DNA of 64,000 nucleotides from Zoogloea sp. (GCF_041916735.1 NZ_JAYRYY010000017.1); one strand, 5' to 3'. Positions 1 to 8,593 are shown, counted from the stretch's first letter. Made by a program: numbers and translations. Notes: generated from the letters alone by a model not told the origin.

Positions 1-417
1 GATCTGGGGCAGCCAGCTGTCCTGGTCCAGCACGGCATTGCCGAGCACCCGCAGCTTGACCCCGAAGACGTCCTGATTGAAGGCGAATCCGTTCCCCAGC
101 CCGAGTGCGCCGCCCACCTCGCGGGTGTTGAAGCGCTGGCGGGCGTAGGACAATTCGAGGCGATCCCACAGGCCCACGGCGACGCCGCCCGTGGCCAGCC
201 CGTAGTCCTGGGACCACACGCCGGTGTAGAAGGCGCTGGCGCCGATCTGGTCGCGGGTGCCGTAACCGGCGATCACCGCCCACGGCGTCAGCCCCCCGCC
301 GGCCGAGCCTTCCAACTGGGTGACGCCGCCCGTGAGCAGCAGCTTGTCGCTGCCGGCGAGGGCGGGCAATGCGGCCCCCCAGGCAAGCATGAGGGTCAGT
401 TTCTTGATAACGTGCAT
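1..417 (-). CDS. DUF3034 family protein, predicted exported/outer-membrane beta-barrel (N-terminal part only; runs off the window edge)
   Basis: Manual translation: MHVIKKLTLMLAWGAALPALAGSDKLLLTGGVTQLEGSAGGGLTPWAVIAGYGTRDQIG...GVKLRVLGNAVLDQDSWLPQI. Signal peptide followed by the GGV..EG.AGGG.TPWA motif I associate with DUF3034; GGAGG RBS upstream. Confidence 0.8.
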   Translation of the reverse strand, partial: MHVIKKLTLMLAWGAALPALAGSDKLLLTGGVTQLEGSAGGGLTPWAVIAGYGTRDQIGASAFYTGVWSQDYGLATGGVAVGLWDRLELSYARQRFNTREVGGALGLGNGFAFNQDVFGVKLRVLGNAVLDQDSWLPQI

Positions 418-481
418 GGCAATCTACCTCCCGAGGTCTTGAATTGGGCGGCGCATTCCTCACCGGGTCCGCCGCACCCCA

Positions 482-510
482 ATTACGCGGGGTGTGGCAA
501 TCCGGATGCA
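482..510 (-). promoter_or_regulatory. Putative ECF sigma promoter TGCATCC-N16-CGTAAT driving the DUF3034 gene
   Basis: Reverse complement of 482-510 reads TGCATCC ggattgccacaccccg CGTAAT; same motif and spacing as 542-570 and 2261-2288. Confidence 0.75.
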
Positions 511-541
511 CACGGGCTTGCCCGCCCGCCATGGCCGGTCC

Positions 542-570
542 TGCATCCGCCAACGCGCCGTGTGCGTAAT
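542..570 (+). promoter_or_regulatory. Putative ECF sigma promoter TGCATCC-N16-CGTAAT driving the sigma/anti-sigma operon
   Basis: TGCATCC (542-548), 16-nt spacer, CGTAAT (565-570), about 105 nt upstream of the sigma start; ECF genes are commonly autoregulated. Confidence 0.75.
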
Positions 571-677
571 GGGGGAACACGCTGCCGTTCATGCTGGTCT
601 GCGCGCAGCGCCCCCGATCCACTCCCGGAGTTGTCCGAAATGGCCTCTGACGCCTGTCACTGCAAGGAGCGATGTCC

Positions 678-1352
678 ATGACCGAGGAGCTGCTGCCGGT
701 GATCCCGCCTGGCACCGCCCGGCCGCCCGGCCCCCTTGATGAGGGAGAAACGGGTGTGCCCCGGCGAGAAGAATGGGCTGCGCCGGATGATCTTGAACTG
801 GAGGCTTGTCTGAAACGCATCGGCGGTGGCGACGAGCTTGCCCTGGCCGACCTCTACGACGCCACCTGTGGTCGGGTGAATGGCATCGTCCTGCGCATCG
901 TCCGGGATACCGTGGCTGCCGAAGAGGTGGTGGAGGATGTCTTCTTCCAGGTATGGCGTCAGGCACTGCGCTACGATCCGGCCCGCGGTCGGCCGTTGGC
1001 GTGGATACTGACCATTGCGCGCAGCCGTGCGCTGGACCATCTGCGTCGCGCCGACCCGGCCGTGTGTCATCCCGAACCGCATACGCTGCTGGAATTCGAA
1101 CCCCATGCCGGCGGCGACCCGCCCGATCTTCTCGCCGCCTGCCAGGACAGCAGCCTCGTGCACGCCGCCCTGGCGGCCCTTGATCCCATACCGCGTCAGC
1201 TGGTGGCTCTGGTCTTTTTCCGCGGCCTTACCCACGAGGAAGTCGCCCAGCATGCAGGCCTGCCCCTCGGAACCGTCAAATCCCACGTCCGGCGTGCGTT
1301 GCTGAGTCTGCGTGCAACGCTGACCGCGCATATCGACAGGAGCACTGCGTGA
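678..1352 (+). CDS. ECF RNA polymerase sigma factor (SigK/RpoE-like)
   Basis: Region 2 (LADLYD...AEEVVEDVFFQVWRQA.RYDP.RG.PLAWILTIARSRALD) and region 4.2 (GLTHEEVAQHAGLPLGTVKSHVRRAL). AAGGAG spacing favours ATG 678 over 672. Confidence 0.92.
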   Translation: MTEELLPVIPPGTARPPGPLDEGETGVPRREEWAAPDDLELEACLKRIGGGDELALADLYDATCGRVNGIVLRIVRDTVAAEEVVEDVFFQVWRQALRYDPARGRPLAWILTIARSRALDHLRRADPAVCHPEPHTLLEFEPHAGGDPPDLLAACQDSSLVHAALAALDPIPRQLVALVFFRGLTHEEVAQHAGLPLGTVKSHVRRALLSLRATLTAHIDRSTA

Positions 1353-2185
1353 TGATGAACAACAAACACATGCTTGATCCCGACGATCCGGCCGGCGGGG
1401 GTGATGTGCACGACCATCTGCTCGAAGCCATTACGCCCGTCCCCTTGTCCCCCGATCGGGCTGATGCCGTGAAGCAGCGTCTGCTCACCCGTATCCGCGC
1501 CAGCCGCACTGCCGGTGCCGACTTCATCCATGTGCGCCTTGAGGAGGGCGAGTGGGGCCGTCTGGTGCCCGGCGTTCGCGTCAAGCGCCTGAGTGGCGAC
1601 GCCCGCTCGGTGCTGCTCGAACTGCAACCCGGCGCGGCGATCCCCTTCCATCGTCATCATGAAGACGAGGAATGCGTGGTGCTCCGCGGTGAGGCCCAGT
1701 TGGGCGATATCACCGTGGGGGTCGGCGACTATCACCTGGCCCGTTCCGGCAGTCGCCACGGTATCGTGCGTTCGGCTCGCGGGGCCCTGCTCTACCTGCG
1801 CGGCACGCCCATCGGCCATGGTATGGAGGTCGCCAGGGACGTGATCAGCGCCCTGCTCCCCGGTCGCGGTCAGGTGCCCCTCACGGTGCACCGCGACGAG
1901 GGAGAATGGACCGAACGCCAGCCCGGTGTCCGCCTCAAGCTGCTGCATGACGACGGGCACGAGCGCTCCCTCCTGCTCAGCCTCGCCCCGGGCGCCCATG
2001 CCGACTTCCGCGATCCGCCCCTCGACAGGGAATGCCTGGTGATCGAAGGCGAGGCCTTTGCGGGTGACAGGTTGCTGCGCGCCGGCGATTACCAGCTCGC
2101 CCCTGATGGAGTGCGGCAGCCGCCCTTAAGCAGCGACGTGGGCAGCCTGCTTTTCGTGCGTTCGTCGAGCCGGCCGGCCGCCTGA
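1349..2185 (+). CDS. ChrR-like anti-sigma factor with tandem cupin domains
   Basis: Overlaps the sigma stop (GTGA). Two cupin repeats (W..LVPGV.VK.L...S.LLEL.PG..IPFHRHHEDEECVVLRG and W...PGVRLKLL...SLLLSLAPGA...ECLVIEG). Confidence 0.82.
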   Translation: MMMNNKHMLDPDDPAGGGDVHDHLLEAITPVPLSPDRADAVKQRLLTRIRASRTAGADFIHVRLEEGEWGRLVPGVRVKRLSGDARSVLLELQPGAAIPFHRHHEDEECVVLRGEAQLGDITVGVGDYHLARSGSRHGIVRSARGALLYLRGTPIGHGMEVARDVISALLPGRGQVPLTVHRDEGEWTERQPGVRLKLLHDDGHERSLLLSLAPGAHADFRDPPLDRECLVIEGEAFAGDRLLRAGDYQLAPDGVRQPPLSSDVGSLLFVRSSSRPAA

Positions 2186-2260
2186 GGGGGGTGTCCGCGC
2201 CCTGCGGGCCGGGTGACTGCGTCTTCTGACGTGGCACCCGGCCCGCGGTGCTTCAGGCCG

Positions 2261-2288
2261 TGCATCCAGGCCGGTATGGGCTGCGTAG
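2261..2288 (+). promoter_or_regulatory. Putative ECF sigma promoter TGCATCC-N16-CGTAG driving ferritin-like/cytochrome c genes
   Basis: TGCATCC (2261-2267), 16 nt, CGTAG (2284-2288), 47 nt upstream of ATG 2335. Confidence 0.72.
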
Positions 2289-2334
2289 AGGGGTTGAAGC
2301 ACCCGTTCCCATCCCCTCGTCAAGGAGTCAGACC

Positions 2335-2913
2335 ATGTCCGCCAATACCCTTCCTGCCCGCCGCAACTTCCTGTCCACCTCCGGCAAGGCCACCCTCTCG
2401 GTTGCCGCCATCGCCCTGCTTGCCGGGCGCCCCGATCTGGCCTCAGCCGCCCCAGGCGACATGGGCAAGGATGTGGACATCCTCAACGTCGCCCTGGGCC
2501 TCGAACACGAGGCCATCAACGCCTACCAGCTTGGCGCGGGCAGTGGCCTCTTGCAGAAGCCGGTGCTCGACGTGGCCGTGCTGTTCCAGTCCCATCACAA
2601 GGGGCACCGGGACGCGCTCATTGCCACCATCGAGAAGATGGGCGGCAAGCCGGTGATGGAAAGATCCCTCGACGACTACGCCAAGGCCCTCAATGCCGGC
2701 ACGCTGAAAAGTCAGGCCGATGTGCTGGCCCTGGCCACACGGCTCGAACTCGGCGCCGCCAATGCCTATCTTGGGGTGATCCCGTCCTTCAAGGACGCGG
2801 CGCTGGCCCAGGTGGCCGGGCGCCTCGCCGCCGACGAAACCATGCACTGGACGGCCTTGTCGTCCGCGCTGGGTCGCACGCTTCCGGCCAAGCCGCTGAG
2901 CTTCGGCGCATGA
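2335..2913 (+). CDS. Tat-exported ferritin-like (four-helix dimetal) protein
   Basis: Twin-arginine signal PARRNFL; ferritin-like ligand pattern LEHEAINAY, HHKGH, LELGAANAY, DETMH; AAGGAG RBS. Confidence 0.85.
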   Translation: MSANTLPARRNFLSTSGKATLSVAAIALLAGRPDLASAAPGDMGKDVDILNVALGLEHEAINAYQLGAGSGLLQKPVLDVAVLFQSHHKGHRDALIATIEKMGGKPVMERSLDDYAKALNAGTLKSQADVLALATRLELGAANAYLGVIPSFKDAALAQVAGRLAADETMHWTALSSALGRTLPAKPLSFGA

Positions 2914-3272
2914 AGCCCGCACTGTGCCTGGCCCTGGCCGGCCTGGCGGTGCTTGCGGCACCTGCCGGGGCGGCCGATGACGCCGACCCGGGCCGCGCCC
3001 TCTATGAGGCGCGCTGCGGTGGCTGCCACGCCCTCGCCGCGGACCGGGTCGGGCCGCGCCATGCCGGGGTGATCGGCCGCAAGGCGGGCAGCATCGCCGG
3101 CTTTGCCTACTCCCCGGCGCTCGCCCGCTCGCAGATTGTGTGGACCGAGGAGAGCCTGGAGCGCTGGCTGCGTGACCCGGAGGCCCTGGTGCCGGGCCAG
3201 CGGATGAACTTCCGGCTTGGCGACGCGGAGGAGCGGCGGCGGATCGTCGATTACCTGAGCCGCAATCGCTAG
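2910..3272 (+). CDS. Class I c-type cytochrome (cytochrome c2-like)
   Basis: Signal peptide, CGGCH heme motif, VGP, GR.AGS..GF.YS.AL, PGQRM axial Met; ATGA overlap with the ferritin-like gene. Confidence 0.92.
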   Translation: MKPALCLALAGLAVLAAPAGAADDADPGRALYEARCGGCHALAADRVGPRHAGVIGRKAGSIAGFAYSPALARSQIVWTEESLERWLRDPEALVPGQRMNFRLGDAEERRRIVDYLSRNR

Positions 3273-3276
3273 CGTC

Positions 3277-4230
3277 TCACGCTACCCGGTTGCGCGCCTC
3301 CCCGGCGGCGAAGGCTTCGATGTTGCCGATCAACTGGTCCGCCAGGGCCTGCATGGCCTCCCGGCTGGACCAGGCCACGTGGGGGGTGAGGATGAAGTTG
3401 CCCGCGTCCAGTAAATCGTGAGCGAGAAGGGGATTGTCCCGGGGTGGCTCCTCGCTCAGCACGTCGAAGCCGGCGCCGCCGATCTGCCTGTGGCGCAGGG
3501 CCTCGGCGAGGGCTGCTTCATCCACCAGACCACCGCGGGCGGTGTTGATGAGCAGGGCGCCGGGCTTCATGGCGGTGAGCTCTGCCGCACCGATCATGTG
3601 CCGGGTGGCGTCGTTGAGGGGGCAGTGCAGGCTGATTACGTCGGCTTCGCGGAGTAGCTGCGGGAAGGCCACGTAGCCTTCGCGCACCGTGTCGGCGCCC
3701 TTGCGCTCGCCGCGGATCACCCGCATGCCGAAGGCCTCGGCGAGGCGGGCGACGCCGTCGCCCAGGGTGCCGCTGCCGAGAATGCCCAGGGTCTGGCCGG
3801 CCAGGTCGCGGATGGGGTAATCGAAATAGCAGAACTGCTCGCTTCGCTGCCAGCGCCCGGCCGCCACCGAGCGGTGGAAGGGGCCGATCTGCCGGGACAG
3901 GGCCAGCAGCAGGGCAAAGACGTGCTCCGGCACGGTCTCGCGGGCGTAGCCGCGCACGTTGGAGACGACAATGTCGCGGGCCCGGCAGGCCTCCAGATCG
4001 ATGTTGTTGTAGCCGGTGGCGGCAATCGCCACCATCTTCAGTCGTGGCACGCCGGCCAGGATGTCGGCGGTCAGCAGGCGCTTGTTGACGACGGCAATGG
4101 TGGCGTCGGCCAGACGGGCCGCCACGTCTTCCTGGCGGGTGGCGTCGAATTCAATCCACTCGTGGGCAAAGGCCGGGCGCCGGACCTGGGCGATCAGGGC
4201 GCCGGCTTCAAGATTGACGATGCGGTGCAT
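3277..4230 (-). CDS. hprA: D-2-hydroxyacid dehydrogenase (glycerate dehydrogenase/hydroxypyruvate reductase-like)
   Basis: ATGYNNID, G.LG.G.LG Rossmann motif, DVISLHCPL, LINTARGGLVDE, DVL..EPP, LTPHVAW. Confidence 0.85.
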   Translation of the reverse strand: MHRIVNLEAGALIAQVRRPAFAHEWIEFDATRQEDVAARLADATIAVVNKRLLTADILAGVPRLKMVAIAATGYNNIDLEACRARDIVVSNVRGYARETVPEHVFALLLALSRQIGPFHRSVAAGRWQRSEQFCYFDYPIRDLAGQTLGILGSGTLGDGVARLAEAFGMRVIRGERKGADTVREGYVAFPQLLREADVISLHCPLNDATRHMIGAAELTAMKPGALLINTARGGLVDEAALAEALRHRQIGGAGFDVLSEEPPRDNPLLAHDLLDAGNFILTPHVAWSSREAMQALADQLIGNIEAFAAGEARNRVA

Positions 4231-4308
4231 GGGGCTTCCTGGAGCGGGGGGAGCCCAAGCATAGCGCGCCCCGGCGGCCGGGCAGAACCGGGGTTTACCG
4301 CAGGCGGC

Positions 4309-4941
4309 TCAGAACTCCACGCCGGCCTGGGCGGCGATGCCGGCCTTGAAGGCGTGCTTGACGACACCCATCTCGGTGACGGTGTCGGCGGCTTCGATCA
4401 GGGCCTCGGGGGCGCCGCGGCCGGTGACGATGACGTGCTGCATTTCGGGCCGGCTGTTGATGTCGTGGAGGACTTCGGCCAGGTCCAGGTAGGCGTACTT
4501 GAGGGCGATGTTGAGTTCGTCGAGGACGACCAGGCCGATCTCCGGATTGTCCAGGAAGCGCCGCGCCTGTTCCCACCCGGCTTTGGCGCTGGCCATGTCG
4601 GCACTGCGGTCCTGGGTGTCCCAGGTAAAGCCGTCGCCCATGACGTGCCAGCTCACCTCGGGCTGGCGGCGGAAGAAGGCTTCCTCACCCGTGTCGGAGC
4701 GGCCTTTGACGAACTGCACCACGCCCACCTTCATGCCGTGGCCGATGGCCCGGGCGAGTACGCCAAAGGCGGCGCTGGACTTGCCCTTGCCGTTGCCGGT
4801 GTTCACCAGCAGCAGGCCGCGGGTGTCGGTGGCGGCGGCGATGGCCGCGTCAACCACGGCCTTCTTGCGCTCCATGCGGGCCTTGTGGCGGGCGTTGCGT
4901 TCTTCGTCGGTGGACGTTGCGTTCAGGTCGGTTGCGCTCAT
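4309..4941 (-). CDS. cobO: Cob(I)yrinic acid a,c-diamide adenosyltransferase
   Basis: TGNGKGKSSAAFG, VVQFVKG, GFTW, VLDELN, VIVTGR, AD.VTEM..VKHAF..G..AQ.GVEF. Confidence 0.96.
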   Translation of the reverse strand: MSATDLNATSTDEERNARHKARMERKKAVVDAAIAAATDTRGLLLVNTGNGKGKSSAAFGVLARAIGHGMKVGVVQFVKGRSDTGEEAFFRRQPEVSWHVMGDGFTWDTQDRSADMASAKAGWEQARRFLDNPEIGLVVLDELNIALKYAYLDLAEVLHDINSRPEMQHVIVTGRGAPEALIEAADTVTEMGVVKHAFKAGIAAQAGVEF

Positions 4942-4970
4942 GGCTTCTCTCGGGGGTGGTTGTGACCGGT

Positions 4971-5753
4971 TCAGACCGGCACGAACAGGGTGTGTTCGCC
5001 ATCGGCGATGGCCCGCAGGGGGTGGCCGAAGGCGGCAGACAGACGCCCAGTGGTGAGCACCTCGGCCGCCGGGCCGATCACGTGGCCGCCCTCACCGTTG
5101 AGCAGCAGCACATGGCTGGCGTAGCGGGCGGTGAGGTTGATGTCATGGAGGACCATCACCACTCCCGCACCACTGCCGGCCAAGCCGCGAAAATGATCGA
5201 GAACGGCAACCTGATGGTGCAGATCCAGGTGGGCCAGGGGTTCATCGAGCAGATACAGGCGTGGCTGCTGGACGAGCAGGGTGGCAATGGCCAGGCGCTG
5301 GCGCTCGCCGCCGGAAAGGGTGGGTACCTGGCGCGTGGCAAAGCTTTCCAGGCCCATCTGCGCCAGGGCGGCCAGGGCAATCGCTTCGTCGTCCGGGCCT
5401 TCCCAGTCCCAGCGGCCCAGGTAGGGGTGGCGGCCGACCAGGGCGGTTTCCAGCACTGTGGCGCTGAAGAAGTCGGGCTGGCTTTGGGCGAGCAGGCCGC
5501 GTAGGCAGGCCTCATGGCCCCGGGGCCAGCCGGCGTAGGGCTGGCCGGACAGCAGCACGGCGCCACGGGCGGCATCGCGCAGGCCGGCGAGGGTATGGAG
5601 CAGGGTGGTCTTGCCGGCGCCGTTGCGGCCAAGGATCACCAGGGTGTCTCCGGCCTGGAGGGTGAAATCCAGCTCGCGACACACCTCCCGGCGCCCCACC
5701 TGGACGGTGAGCCGTTCGGCGGCCAGCACGGGGGGGCGGGCATCCATCTTCAT
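4971..5753 (-). CDS. btuD: Cobalamin/Fe3+-siderophore ABC transporter ATP-binding protein
   Basis: Walker A GRNGAGKTT, LSGGERQR signature, LLDEP, HD; ATGA-coupled to the permease. Confidence 0.88.
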   Translation of the reverse strand: MKMDARPPVLAAERLTVQVGRREVCRELDFTLQAGDTLVILGRNGAGKTTLLHTLAGLRDAARGAVLLSGQPYAGWPRGHEACLRGLLAQSQPDFFSATVLETALVGRHPYLGRWDWEGPDDEAIALAALAQMGLESFATRQVPTLSGGERQRLAIATLLVQQPRLYLLDEPLAHLDLHHQVAVLDHFRGLAGSGAGVVMVLHDINLTARYASHVLLLNGEGGHVIGPAAEVLTTGRLSAAFGHPLRAIADGEHTLFVPV

Positions 5754-6784
5754 CGCGGGTGACGGGCCAGCAGGAACAGGAACACGGGCACGCCGATCAG
5801 GGCGGTGAGCACCCCCACCGGCAGCTGGATGGGGGCCACGACGGTGCGTGCCGCGGTGTCGGCGGCGCACAGCAACACACCGCCGGCCAGGGTGGCGGCG
5901 GGCAGCAGCAGGCGCTGGTCGTTGCCGATGGCCAGGCGCACCAGGTGGGGCACGATCAGGCCGATGAAGCCTACCGAGCCGACGGTGGTGACCGCTACGG
6001 CAGTGAGCAGGGAGCCCAGACCGTAGACCAGCCCGCGCAGGCGCCCGACCCGCACGCCGAGGGCGCGGGCGGTGACTTCGCCACGGGTCAGCAGGTTGAG
6101 TTCGCGGGCGAAGGGCAGGGCCGCCGCAAGTCCGACGGCCAGCAAGGCCAGGGCCGGCCACGGCCGGGTGGCGCCGCTGGCGTCACCCATCAGCCAGAAC
6201 AGCATGCCCTTGACCCGCCCCTCCGGGGCCAGACTGAGCATCAGGGCCACCGCCGCGCCGCAGCCGGCGGCGACGATGACGCCGGTGAGGAGGAGACGGG
6301 TCTGGGTCCAGGACCCGTCTCCGTGGGCCAGCCCGAAGACCAGCAGGGTGGCGCCGAGGGCGCCGATGAAGGCTCCCGCGTCGATCCAGCCGGCCACGGC
6401 TCCGGCCAGGATGGCACCCAGCGCACCGACGGCAGCCCCGCCGGAGATCCCCAGCACGTAAGGATCGGCCAGGGGGTTGCGCAGCAGCACCTGCATCAGC
6501 GCACCGGCCAGGGCCAGCAGGCCACCGCAGGCAAAGGCGGCCACGGCCCGCGGCAGGCGCAGGCTGCGGATGATGTCGGCCTCCATGCCACCTTCGGTGC
6601 CGGAGAGGGCGGTCAGGAGGTCGTCGAAGGAGACCGGCAGGGCGCCGGCCGAGAGGGACCAGACAAAGGCCGCGAGAGCCGCCAGCACCAGGCCGGCGAG
6701 CACTGCCGCGGCGCGGCGGCGCAACGACAGCATGCCGGTGTTGCACCTTGCGGCCTGCTCCTGGGCCATGGTCCCTCCGCTCAT
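5750..6784 (-). CDS. btuC: FecCD/BtuC family ABC permease
   Basis: LRLPR, Q.LLRNPLADPY.LG.SGGAA, G.VGFIGL.VPH..R, LPVG..TAL.G.PVF. Confidence 0.9.
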   Translation of the reverse strand: MSGGTMAQEQAARCNTGMLSLRRRAAAVLAGLVLAALAAFVWSLSAGALPVSFDDLLTALSGTEGGMEADIIRSLRLPRAVAAFACGGLLALAGALMQVLLRNPLADPYVLGISGGAAVGALGAILAGAVAGWIDAGAFIGALGATLLVFGLAHGDGSWTQTRLLLTGVIVAAGCGAAVALMLSLAPEGRVKGMLFWLMGDASGATRPWPALALLAVGLAAALPFARELNLLTRGEVTARALGVRVGRLRGLVYGLGSLLTAVAVTTVGSVGFIGLIVPHLVRLAIGNDQRLLLPAATLAGGVLLCAADTAARTVVAPIQLPVGVLTALIGVPVFLFLLARHPR

Positions 6785-6787
6785 GTC

Positions 6788-8593
6788 TTACTTCGGAGCG
6801 TAGCGTACGCCGACGAAGACGTTGGCGCCGGGGGTGTTGTAGCCGTAAGCGGTCTCGTATTGCTTGTCGAGCAGGTTGTTCATCCGCCCTTCAACGGCCC
6901 ATTCGTGGGTGAGGGCGTACTTGGCATAGGCGTTGAGTACGCCATAGCCGCCCAGCGGACGGATCTCGTTGGCCCGGTCGTAGCGGTCGCCGGAGCCGCG
7001 CCACTCGACACCCATGGTGAGCGCCTGGATGCGCCGGCTGATGGAAAGGTTGGCGAACTTGTTGGCGCGGCGTTGCAGGCGCTTGTCCGTGTCGGCGTCC
7101 TTCGGGTCGAGGAAGTCCACGCTGGCGCTCAGGTCGAAGCCGGCCAGTTGTCCACCGTAACCCAGGGTGATGCCCTCGAGCTTGGCATTGGCCACGTTGC
7201 GGGGGATGAAGTTCTGGTCGTTGGCGATCAGGTTGCTGATGCGGTTGCGGTAATAGGTGGCGCTCAGGTTGTGGCTGCCCTTTTCCCACAGCAGGCCGAT
7301 TTCCTTGTTGTAGGCATTCTCGGGCTTCAGCTCGGGGTTGCCGAAGCCCGGGTAGTACAGCTCGTTGAAGGTCGGCGCCCGGAAGGCTGAGCCGATGCTG
7401 CCCTGGACGCGCAGGGTTGGCAGGATCTGGTAGCCGTAGCCGGCGTAGCCTGTGGTCTTGCCGCCGTACTGGGAGTTGTCGTCGTGGCGGGCGTTGAGCT
7501 GCAGGCGGTGGGCGTCGATGCTCGCCGTCCAGCCGAGCAGGAAGGAATTGACCGAGCGGCTGACATCGAAGGTGCCTTCGTTGGTGGCCTTTTGGTGCAG
7601 GTTTTCGTAGGCGGCAAGCAGGCTGCCCACCGGCAGGCGCACATCGTGCTGCCACATGAACTGGTTCTGGGTGGTCTTGATGGTGGCGCCGTTGGGAGCG
7701 TAGGAGGCGAAGTTCTCGTAATCGTCGATGGACTGGCCGAAGCGCACGGTGCTGGTCCAGATGTCGGTGAACCGGTTGCGACTGTAGAGGTTCCAGGCGC
7801 TCTGGGCGGCGTTGTTGTAGTTGTTGTAGGTCCGGCCCGAGTCGTACATGGAGCGGCTTTCGGCATAGAGCACCGAGCCGCCCAGTTCGTGACCAGCGGC
7901 AGGGCGCCAGGCGAAGTTGCCCGAGAAATTGCCGTTGCGGTACAGGTCGTTGTCGGGGTTGTAGGTGGACAGCTTGCGGTTCTGCGCGCTGAAGCTGTCC
8001 GTCTGGGAATAGCCGCCGCGTGCCGAATAGGATATCTGCTCGGTGCCGCCCGCCACGCCGGCGGAGACTTCACGGGTGCCGTAGCTGCCGGCGCCCACGA
8101 AGGCATTGATCTTCGGTTCGCCGCGGCCTTTTTTGGTGATGACCTGTATCACACCGCCGATGGCGTCGGCACCATACAGGGCCGAGGCGGGGCCGCGGAC
8201 GATCTCGATGCGTTCGATCTGGGACAGGGGAATGTCCTGCCAGGCGGCCGTGCCCAGGGTGGCGGAGCCCAGGCGCATGCCGTCCACGAGGAACAGGGTG
8301 TGCTTGGAGTTGGTGCCGCGGATGGAGATGTCGGTGGCCTTGCCCGGGCCGCCGTTGGAACTCATCTGGATGCCGGGCTGGCGGGCCAGCAGTTCGGGCA
8401 GCGAGAAGCTCGGGCCGGCCCGTTCGATACTCTCGCGGTCGATCACCGTGGTGTCGGCGATGGCCTCGTCGGCACGCTGGGCCTGACGGGTGGCGGTCAC
8501 GGTCACGGTGGGTTGATCGGTCCCGGCGGCCAGTGCTGGGGTAGAAAAAGCGGCAGCGACCGCGATGGCGGCAGCGGAAAGGCGGATGATCAT
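6788..8593 (-). CDS. btuB: TonB-dependent vitamin B12 receptor
   Basis: Signal peptide, TonB box TVTVTATR, plug motifs (IRGTNSKHTLFLVDG, IERIEIVRGPASALYGADAIGGVIQVIT), C-terminal N.LDK.YE...GY..PG; lies downstream of a cobalamin riboswitch. Confidence 0.93.
   Translation of the reverse strand: MIIRLSAAAIAVAAAFSTPALAAGTDQPTVTVTATRQAQRADEAIADTTVIDRESIERAGPSFSLPELLARQPGIQMSSNGGPGKATDISIRGTNSKHTLFLVDGMRLGSATLGTAAWQDIPLSQIERIEIVRGPASALYGADAIGGVIQVITKKGRGEPKINAFVGAGSYGTREVSAGVAGGTEQISYSARGGYSQTDSFSAQNRKLSTYNPDNDLYRNGNFSGNFAWRPAAGHELGGSVLYAESRSMYDSGRTYNNYNNAAQSAWNLYSRNRFTDIWTSTVRFGQSIDDYENFASYAPNGATIKTTQNQFMWQHDVRLPVGSLLAAYENLHQKATNEGTFDVSRSVNSFLLGWTASIDAHRLQLNARHDDNSQYGGKTTGYAGYGYQILPTLRVQGSIGSAFRAPTFNELYYPGFGNPELKPENAYNKEIGLLWEKGSHNLSATYYRNRISNLIANDQNFIPRNVANAKLEGITLGYGGQLAGFDLSASVDFLDPKDADTDKRLQRRANKFANLSISRRIQALTMGVEWRGSGDRYDRANEIRPLGGYGVLNAYAKYALTHEWAVEGRMNNLLDKQYETAYGYNTPGANVFVGVRYAPK

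Follow-up and report, generated by a model that had tools for sequence, protein, structure and literature searches.

The first 3,272 nucleotides (nt) of a 64,000-nt stretch of DNA from Zoogloea sp. (GCF_041916735.1, NZ_JAYRYY010000017.1), referred to here as the window, encode an extracytoplasmic function (ECF) sigma factor, a bicupin protein and two sets of exported proteins, and in silico analysis of this locus and its relatives indicates that it is very probably a small regulon controlled by an autoregulated ECF sigma factor of the SigK/RpoE neighbourhood that acts on ECF18-type promoters. The assignment of the predicted promoters to this sigma factor is the part of the reading in which we have the greatest confidence. 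The window corresponds to C17:28750-92749 of the host genome (G000; 4,605,886 bp in 28 contigs, 64% GC), where contigs, loci and genomes carry the prefixes C, L and G, respectively. The elements of the locus, all but the last lying within the window, are as follows.

1-417, minus strand: 5′ half of the DUF3034 gene (full gene C17:28306-29166, 286 amino acids (aa); PF11231, 354 bits for the full protein)
484-510, minus strand: predicted ECF promoter of the DUF3034-globin unit, TGCATCC GGATTGCCACACCCCG CGTA, exact match; CGTA ends 66 nt before the DUF3034 ATG (417); kept in L002-L005
542-568, plus strand: predicted autoregulatory ECF promoter of the sigma-bicupin operon, TGCATCC GCCAACGCGCCGTGTG CGTA, exact match; CGTA lies 103 nt before the sigma ATG (672)
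672-1352, plus strand: ECF sigma factor, 226 aa (PF04542, 58 bits; PF04545, 50 bits), with sigma-2 and sigma-4 domains only
1349-2185, plus strand: cytoplasmic bicupin, 278 aa, two Cupin_7 domains; presumed anti-sigma factor and sensor
2261-2287, plus strand: predicted ECF promoter of the ferritin-like/cytochrome c unit, TGCATCC AGGCCGGTATGGGCTG CGTA, exact match; CGTA lies 47 nt before the ferritin-like ATG (2335); kept in L002-L005, L007 and L008
2335-2913, plus strand: Tat-exported ferritin-like protein, 192 aa, with an RRNFL twin-arginine signal (PF13668, 87 bits)
2910-3272, plus strand: Sec-exported mono-haem class I cytochrome c, 120 aa (PF00034, 32 bits, cut-off 21.3)
C17:27855-28289 (= L001:9856-10290), minus strand, outside the window: truncated haemoglobin, 144 aa, with a Sec signal peptide (PF01152, Bac_globin, 55 bits, cut-off 21)

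The sequence TGCATCC-N16-CGTA is present in three exact copies in the window, as compared to 0.02 expected, and three copies were obtained in none of 100 dinucleotide shuffles. An exact search thus bears out a first-pass annotation, made from the sequence of the window, which had reported three copies with identical spacing and one copy for each transcription unit of the locus; the positions it gave locate the sites correctly, while their ends were 1-2 nt too long as bases past CGTA had been counted (CGTAAT at the first two sites). The genome-wide scan which that annotation had proposed returned exactly three N16 sites in 4.6 Mb, all within the sigma locus, whereas each of the other spacers from 13 to 20 gave 0-2 scattered sites in the same genome. 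All three N16 sites are intergenic and fall within 1.8 kb, each being oriented toward the next gene (DUF3034, sigma or ferritin-like) and positioned 47-103 nt ahead of its ATG; recurrence of the motif at background frequency in coding DNA, which the same annotation had named as telling against its proposal, was not observed. The gene assignments were likewise upheld by Pfam (DUF3034, Sigma70_r2 and r4, Cupin_7 twice, Ferritin_2/DUF4439 and Cytochrom_C). No RNA family was detected at E <= 0.1 in an Rfam scan of window positions 1-3500, a scan of the region for sigma-70 promoters found none, and the sole terminator-like site of the region falls inside the bicupin gene and is within chance expectation.

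Conservation of the motif was assessed in 55 related loci (617 kb) gathered using the bicupin as query and derived from Zoogloea, Nitrosomonas (oligotropha and ureae types), Methyloversatilis, Ca. Methylophosphatis, other Rhodocyclaceae and one member of the Porticoccaceae, the nearest relatives of the bicupin locus being located in Zoogloea metagenome-assembled genomes (MAGs; 91% identity). A match to the sigma factor was found directly 5′ of the bicupin in 54 of these loci, with coding regions that overlap or nearly do so, and the N16 motif was present 78 times, in 48 of the 55 loci. The N17 form of the motif occurred four times, while spacers of 12-15 and 18-21 and the reversed pattern gave no sites in these 617 kb. 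The sequence of the spacer is unconstrained, and conservation beyond the core is limited to R at +7, A at +9 and cTG before CGTA. An exact site lies 5′ of the sigma operon in most of the 55 loci and is in many cases arranged back to back with another that faces a divergent gene; where no exact site exists, the homologous position bears one-mismatch forms, as with TGAATCC and CGCATCC in L019. Whole-genome scans of eight relatives yielded 2-5 exact sites each, as compared to 0-2 for a control pattern, and the extra exact sites in these genomes lie 5′ of genes for exported proteins. Judged by sequence, the conserved motif 5′ of the sigma operon is the phylogenetic footprint of a putative autoregulated promoter, and the earlier proposal that the sigma factor autoregulates and drives neighbouring exported proteins is supported in what concerns the placement and conservation of the motif, its regulatory part standing as a prediction.

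The sigma factor itself scores 69 bits against TIGR02937, above the cut-off of 42.9, and sigma regions 1 and 3 were not found by Pfam in the 226-aa protein. Its top structure matches are SigK of Mycobacterium tuberculosis (4nqw, 6.5e-32) followed by RpoE of Rhodobacter sphaeroides (2q1z, 6.4e-26), and its best NCBIfam model is the SigK subfamily NF007228 at 151 bits, which is under the cut-off of 226. It would accordingly be described as SigK/RpoE-like, and as ECF18-like going by its promoter. The predicted ECF18 consensus reported in a transcription start site (TSS) study of Cupriavidus metallidurans reads xGCATCC at -35 and xxCGTATx at -10 (PMC13492112, Table 4), and the Zoogloea motif equals this published consensus (GCATCC/CGTAT). 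The TSS-mapped promoters of Shewanella RpoE2, an ECF11 sigma factor, have the form TGATCC-N16-CGTA(A/T)T (PMC4336711), and a whole-genome search of Zoogloea with the pattern TG.ATCC-N16-CGTA returned the same three sites only. A search of the literature for TGCATCC in connection with ECF sigma factors produced nothing directly usable.

The bicupin gene starts with a GTG that overlaps the stop codon of the sigma gene (GTGATG). The AlphaFold2 (AF2) model of the protein (mean predicted local distance difference test score, pLDDT, 81) consists of helices at residues 14-27 and 35-56, a first cupin domain at 60-151, a linker helix and a degenerate second cupin domain at 178-273; no signal peptide, transmembrane segment or zinc anti-sigma motif was detected in it. 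Residues H101, H103, E107 and H137 of cupin 1 are invariant in 22 sequences and form the same pattern as H141, H143, E147 and H177 of ChrR (H-x-H-x3-E ... H), and cupin 2 has no such His/His/Glu/His metal site. The N-terminal helices carry conserved residues L24, L28, L45 and R48 and align with the end of the ChrR anti-sigma domain (ASD). The best fold match is PDB entry 3o14 (E 4.4e-14, template modelling score 0.76 on the target), which is also the best sequence-profile match.

The DUF3034 protein has a signal peptide and a C-terminal ...LQVGF as in outer-membrane barrels, and is predicted to be an outer-membrane beta-barrel; a sequence comparison with the PDB gave no match and a literature search on DUF3034 returned nothing relevant. 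It is the first of two genes, as the truncated haemoglobin gene lies 16 nt to its 3′ side on the same strand. The histidine in the PMGPLHAGLGI segment of this globin aligns with the proximal-histidine region of the profile of the Nitrosomonas globin described below, which itself matches structures of group 1 truncated haemoglobins (trHbN). DUF3034 was found in 16 of 300 genomes of the class, where 11 of the 15 further full-length loci that were sampled have a globin gene adjoining it, usually without this promoter; such recurrent adjacency suggests that DUF3034 and the exported globin form a conserved functional pair which has been placed under ECF control in some lineages of the Burkholderiales. 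Since the motif was encountered 5′ of DUF3034-globin pairs only in G158 among 14 other genomes examined, this control would be lineage-specific. Among nine related genomes checked, the pair was present only in the closest Zoogloea MAG and not in Z. oryzae, and the DUF3034-globin unit is an accessory module of the regulon. Convergent with the globin gene, and likewise outside the window, is an open reading frame (ORF) of up to 1204 aa (C17:24220-27834, plus strand), the translation of which has the look of a SWIM-zinc-finger/SNF2-type helicase.

The ferritin-like protein of the second effector unit belongs to a family with 4547 matches, 77-80% identical across families, in which the RRxF twin-arginine signal is invariant. 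Its AF2 model is a four-helix bundle, the nearest folds being those of Rv2844, Dps-like proteins, the tardigrade protein RvY_06210 and bacterioferritins. The invariant residues E57, H87/H88/H91, E138 and E168-x2-H171 are putative dimetal ligands, helix B carrying HHxxH where the classic dimetal site (E, ExxH, E, ExxH) has ExxH. Export of the protein by the Tat pathway suggests that metal is loaded in the cytoplasm. The ATG of the cytochrome c gene overlaps the stop codon of the ferritin-like gene (ATGA), and the pair is kept in L002-L008 and L087; in the cytochrome a CGGCH haem motif, a PGQRM segment holding the distal methionine and a signal peptide can be read from the sequence. The ATGA coupling to a cytochrome c would argue for redox chemistry of the ferritin-like protein.

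The search for unlinked members of the regulon was extended to the 40 one-mismatch sites in the genome, most of which were dropped as they lie inside coding DNA or have no gene downstream, and one alone passed the conservation test.

C20:13880-13906, plus strand: TGCATCC-N16-AGTA, intergenic, following an A/T-rich stretch, 5′ of a DUF3455 lipoprotein gene (C20:13907-14518)

At the orthologous gene of a Zoogloea MAG (L097), and likewise of Z. oryzae (L098), this site is kept although the flanking DNA has diverged; on this comparative evidence it is likely to serve the regulon as a fourth promoter, its -10 element being a variant. The first-pass description of the locus as a self-contained mini-regulon nearly holds but is not strictly correct, as the DUF3034 unit runs past the window edge into the exported globin gene and the unlinked DUF3455 gene also possesses a conserved one-mismatch site. 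The genes found as candidate targets in this and other lineages are the following.

Exported truncated haemoglobin: Zoogloea; 14 of the 15 Nitrosomonas-type loci holding it (divergent exact site); L016; G158 (TGAATCC variant)
Gene for the ferritin-like protein, in most cases together with cytochrome c: every Zoogloea locus; G158; Sphaerotilus; L087
Operon of DUF4331, TPR and HupE/UreJ-like genes: Ca. Methylophosphatis; one clade of the Rhodocyclaceae
ABM-domain gene or FAD-binding oxidase gene, located between the promoter and the sigma gene: Nitrosomonas
Small Cys-rich secreted protein, unlinked site: Nitrosomonas
Lipocalin-like secreted protein, unlinked site: Methyloversatilis

The Nitrosomonas-type loci with a divergent globin gene are L010, L011, L013, L014, L017, L018, L020, L021, L025, L027, L032-L035 and L042, to which L016 is added. 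The encoded protein of about 190 aa is membrane-anchored or secreted, contains two invariant cysteines and has no Pfam match. When set against the one Zoogloea globin by hhalign, the Nitrosomonas protein gave a probability of 2.5%, and the question was settled by a PDB profile search, in which the Nitrosomonas profile matched structures of group 1 truncated haemoglobins along the entire length of these structures (E 7e-6). By this profile evidence the protein is a very divergent group 1 truncated haemoglobin that falls outside Pfam Bac_globin. The operon for a DUF4331 secreted protein, a TPR protein and a HupE/UreJ-like membrane protein was observed at L015:965-5200, at L047:2300-5314 and in L051, some of the sites having N17 spacers. 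In N. oligotropha Nm45 (L073) and a Nitrosomonas MAG (L058) an unlinked motif precedes the gene for a Cys-rich secreted protein of about 130 aa with no Pfam match, the L058 copy of which is seemingly broken by a stop codon soon after its start.

In a phylogenetic tree the bicupin-linked sigma factors form one clade (support 99/92), apart from three RskA-linked sigma factors of Burkholderiales-type genomes, and the nearest outgroup is the RskA-linked sigma factor of G158, a genome of the same order. The G158 operon (L116, G158:C1:898000-912000) comprises genes for DUF3034, an exported globin, a cupredoxin-like protein (under the Pfam cut-off), an ECF sigma factor and RskA, the RskA_C domain being found at the position equivalent to that of the bicupin. 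It is divergent from a ferritin-like gene, the product of which is 78% identical to that of Zoogloea, with TGAATCC-N16/17-CGTA sites between them on both sides. The same effectors thus stand beside an RskA-linked relative and are fronted by the same type of site, and it appears from these arrangements that RskA has been exchanged for the bicupin on the same promoter type and with partly the same effectors. The composition is not confined to this sigma type, as the RskA-linked G158 locus has the DUF3034-globin pair and the ferritin-like gene as well. In Sphaerotilus an exact motif lies 77 nt 5′ of the ferritin-like orthologue, and L087 has a TGAATCC variant at the same distance. A further exact motif of Sphaerotilus (L090, G009:C5, positions 6958-6984, minus strand) lies 5′ of an operon for an amine oxidase, DUF1365 and cyclopropane fatty acid (CFA) synthase, a set which we take to be typical of oxidative-stress ECF11 and SigK regulons. 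The sigma relatives of Sphaerotilus are two SigK-RskA pairs only, one of them preceded by DUF3455, and no bicupin-linked sigma factor was found in the regions examined.

The working of the system may be pictured as follows. The sigma factor would read a -35 element TGCATCC and a -10 element CGTA situated 16 nt apart, the latter often extended to cTGCGTA, and transcription would start a few bases past CGTA at the three promoters of the locus, which serve the sigma-bicupin, DUF3034-globin and ferritin-like/cytochrome c units; the unlinked fourth promoter with its AGTA would probably drive the DUF3455 lipoprotein gene. The translationally coupled cytoplasmic bicupin would keep the sigma factor inactive by means of its two N-terminal helices, which correspond approximately to the last part of the ChrR ASD. 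The His/His/Glu/His metal site of cupin 1 would perceive a cytoplasmic stimulus, probably an oxidant or a reactive nitrogen species in view of what ChrR systems sense, whereupon the sigma factor would be set free and would transcribe its own operon in positive feedback. The output would consist of periplasmic haem, metal and electron-carrier proteins directed against reactive oxygen species (ROS) or reactive nitrogen species (RNS) in the envelope. Periplasmic detoxification of peroxide, nitric oxide (NO) or other reactive species is plausible from the predicted functions of the targets, and the option of NO or O2 is strengthened by the presence of an exported globin in the regulon; by analogy with related systems, a role in ROS/RNS defence is put forward tentatively, as a possibility that we would not yet favour.

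A number of observations weigh against parts of this proposal. The bicupin has neither helices I-II of ChrR nor its HxxxCxxC zinc site (ligands H6/H31/C35/C38), scores 23 bits against TIGR02451 (cut-off 124.5) and 41 bits against NF051881 (cut-off 300), the two ChrR families, and its family profile aligns only to ChrR residues 46-181. With neither a zinc-binding anti-sigma (ZAS) domain nor a full ASD, with scores this far under the cut-offs and with partial alignment, the bicupin is not a member of the ChrR family, and its first-pass designation as a ChrR-type cupin anti-sigma factor has to be given up. Bicupin dioxygenases and decarboxylases rank next after 3o14 in the fold comparison, so that the protein may be an enzyme or another cofactor. 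There is indeed an appreciable, if minor, chance that the sites are promoters of the sigma factor and that the bicupin is a co-expressed metalloenzyme or a positive cofactor, the sigma factor being controlled by transcription, by proteolysis or by another protein; the missing anti-sigma motifs, the low ChrR scores and the enzyme-like fold matches would all be explained in this manner. It fits less well with a sigma-bicupin neighbourhood that holds, with stop/start overlap, in loci from several families (54 of 55), with a two-helix N-terminal extension that is apparently absent from 3o14 and can be aligned with the last part of the ChrR ASD, and with the RskA anti-sigma factor that occupies the same position beside the sister sigma factor of G158. 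Because of this strict synteny, the translational coupling and the conserved N-terminal helices, we are modestly inclined to regard the bicupin as an anti-sigma factor. As for function, no Ferritin_2 relatives have been characterised other than RvFeMP-1 and DRB0118, and these act as metabolite phosphatases with a dinuclear metal site, not as peroxidases (PMC11616004). Both types of globin apparently have Met or Phe at position B10 instead of the usual Tyr, according to our own reading of the alignments, which renders NO-dioxygenase chemistry uncertain. The targets vary strongly by lineage (DUF4331-TPR-HupE, ABM, FAD oxidase and small Cys-rich proteins), and no single physiological role can be deduced from them.

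The main alternative as to role, conceivable albeit unlikely, is that the regulon serves the handling of metals in the envelope, that is the acquisition, storage or oxidation of Fe, Mn, Cu or Ni, and that the cupin site senses metal status. The Tat-exported ferritin-like protein with its similarity in fold to bacterioferritin and Dps, the DUF4331-TPR-HupE/UreJ-like targets elsewhere, the cupredoxin-like gene of the G158 operon and the NCBIfam naming of ChrR as cadmium-responsive, among other stimuli, would be in keeping with such a role, yet the characterised ECF11 RpoE-ChrR relatives answer singlet oxygen and peroxide stress, and the recurrent target is a globin and not a metal transporter. 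The Sphaerotilus motif before the amine oxidase-DUF1365-CFA synthase operon, presumably an oxidative-stress set, also speaks against metal handling. That the motif is bound by another ECF sigma factor or a DNA-binding regulator, its linkage to the local sigma factor being coincidental, is considered very improbable. The genome does encode one further sigma homologue, a distant one at C6:59411 (36% identity), the exact motif occurs in Sphaerotilus with no bicupin-linked sigma factor in the regions examined, and ECF11, ECF18 and related groups possibly cross-talk (PMC13492112); however, the motif accompanies the sigma-bicupin pair at a fixed 16-nt spacing in 48 of the 55 loci, is asymmetric and always faces the downstream gene, and fits the consensus of the phylogenetic neighbourhood of the sigma factor. 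Chance, for which nothing more can be adduced than that each spacer class yields about one 11-base match in a genome as background, is virtually discounted, the three oriented intergenic sites within 1.8 kb and their conservation across genomes refuting it.

The genes 3′ of the locus (window positions 3277-6784) appear unrelated to the regulon, the last three of those given below being described from translation only and resembling cobalamin or iron-chelate uptake genes.

3277-4230, minus strand: D-2-hydroxyacid dehydrogenase
4309-4941, minus strand: 210-aa ORF
4971-6161, minus strand: ABC ATPase-like ORF
5750-6784, minus strand: permease-like ORF

The kind of mechanism described here, an autoregulated ECF sigma factor on an ECF18-type promoter, is known and its regulatory logic is standard. 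The locus departs from this kind in its partner, a bicupin that has no zinc anti-sigma domain and apparently takes the place of RskA, in effectors from uncharacterised families and in an exported truncated haemoglobin as a recurrent target; a literature search found no experimental work on the bicupin partner, the effector set or the exported-globin target. A bolder and as yet speculative extension of the proposed reading is that the bicupin may constitute a new class of soluble anti-sigma factor which uses half an anti-sigma domain (two helices approximating ChrR helices III-IV) and has replaced the RskA of ECF18-type sigma factors in a betaproteobacterial clade, and that the core of the regulon may be a periplasmic haem system in which the exported truncated haemoglobin and the DUF3034 barrel, receiving electrons from cytochrome c or a cupredoxin, together with a Tat-exported dimetal oxidoreductase, deal with NO or species derived from O2 in the envelope of nitrifying and denitrifying bacteria. 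The analysis provides a testable promoter-to-gene map for families of no known function, namely DUF3034, DUF3455, the Tat-exported Ferritin_2 proteins and, in relatives, DUF4331, while the pairing of DUF3034 with an exported truncated haemoglobin in many Proteobacteria offers a first functional handle on both. The apparent swap from RskA to a bicupin bears on the evolution of ECF modules and on the question of what constitutes a minimal anti-sigma domain. The carriers are wastewater bacteria, namely the floc-former Zoogloea, Nitrosomonas cluster 6a, Methyloversatilis and Ca. Methylophosphatis, and a stress regulon tied to periplasmic NO or oxidants would, if true, be relevant to the physiology of nitrification and denitrification. 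The orthogonal promoter-sigma pair may also be of use as a compact genetic switch.

Among known systems, the group 1 truncated haemoglobins offer a counterpart to the globin targets, as the Zoogloea protein belongs to PF01152 and the Nitrosomonas protein matches trHbN structures over their full length with the proximal histidine aligned. The occurrence of truncated haemoglobins in the periplasm has been considered for cable bacteria (PMC11976967). The Zoogloea globin differs from both in being Sec-exported, paired with a predicted outer-membrane barrel and under predicted ECF control, and in the apparent Met or Phe at B10. The closest structural counterpart of the bicupin, PDB 3o14 (Marinobacter aquaeolei Maqu_0586, deposited as 'anti-ECF sigma factor, ChrR'), is likewise a bicupin and is itself without an anti-sigma domain, but it is 222 aa in length, apparently lacks the two N-terminal helices and is a structural-genomics entry for which no functional data were found. 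In common with ECF11 ChrR the bicupin is a soluble cytoplasmic protein, the presumed sensor, that keeps the cupin-domain ligand pattern in its cupin 1, whereas it has a second cupin and no N-terminal Cys/His zinc ligands. At the level of the sigma factor and promoter, the ECF11 RpoE-ChrR systems of Rhodobacter sphaeroides, Shewanella (RpoE2) and Caulobacter (SigE) share with Zoogloea an RpoE-like sigma factor and, in the TSS-mapped RpoE2 promoters, the sequence ATCC-N16-CGTA, the spacing and -10 being equal, while the Zoogloea -35 contains GCATCC and not TGATCC, and no motif was found at photolyase or CFA-synthase genes in the Zoogloea genome. Shewanella RpoE2 also drives a periplasmic peroxidase (PMC4336711), an output comparable to that proposed here. 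The ECF18/ECF19 systems with RskA, such as M. tuberculosis SigK-RskA, Pseudomonas putida RpoT and C. metallidurans RpoP, resemble the Zoogloea system in several respects: SigK is the best structure match and the promoter is of ECF18 type, regulation is autoregulatory (predicted in Zoogloea) and the regulon small, and DUF3455 recurs in a Sphaerotilus SigK-RskA operon just as a near-consensus site precedes DUF3455 in Zoogloea. Unlike these systems, Zoogloea has as partner a soluble bicupin with Cupin_7 domains only, with no RskA_C domain or transmembrane segment, and the bicupin-linked sigma factors form a clade of their own that is only 37-40% identical to the RskA-linked sigma factors.

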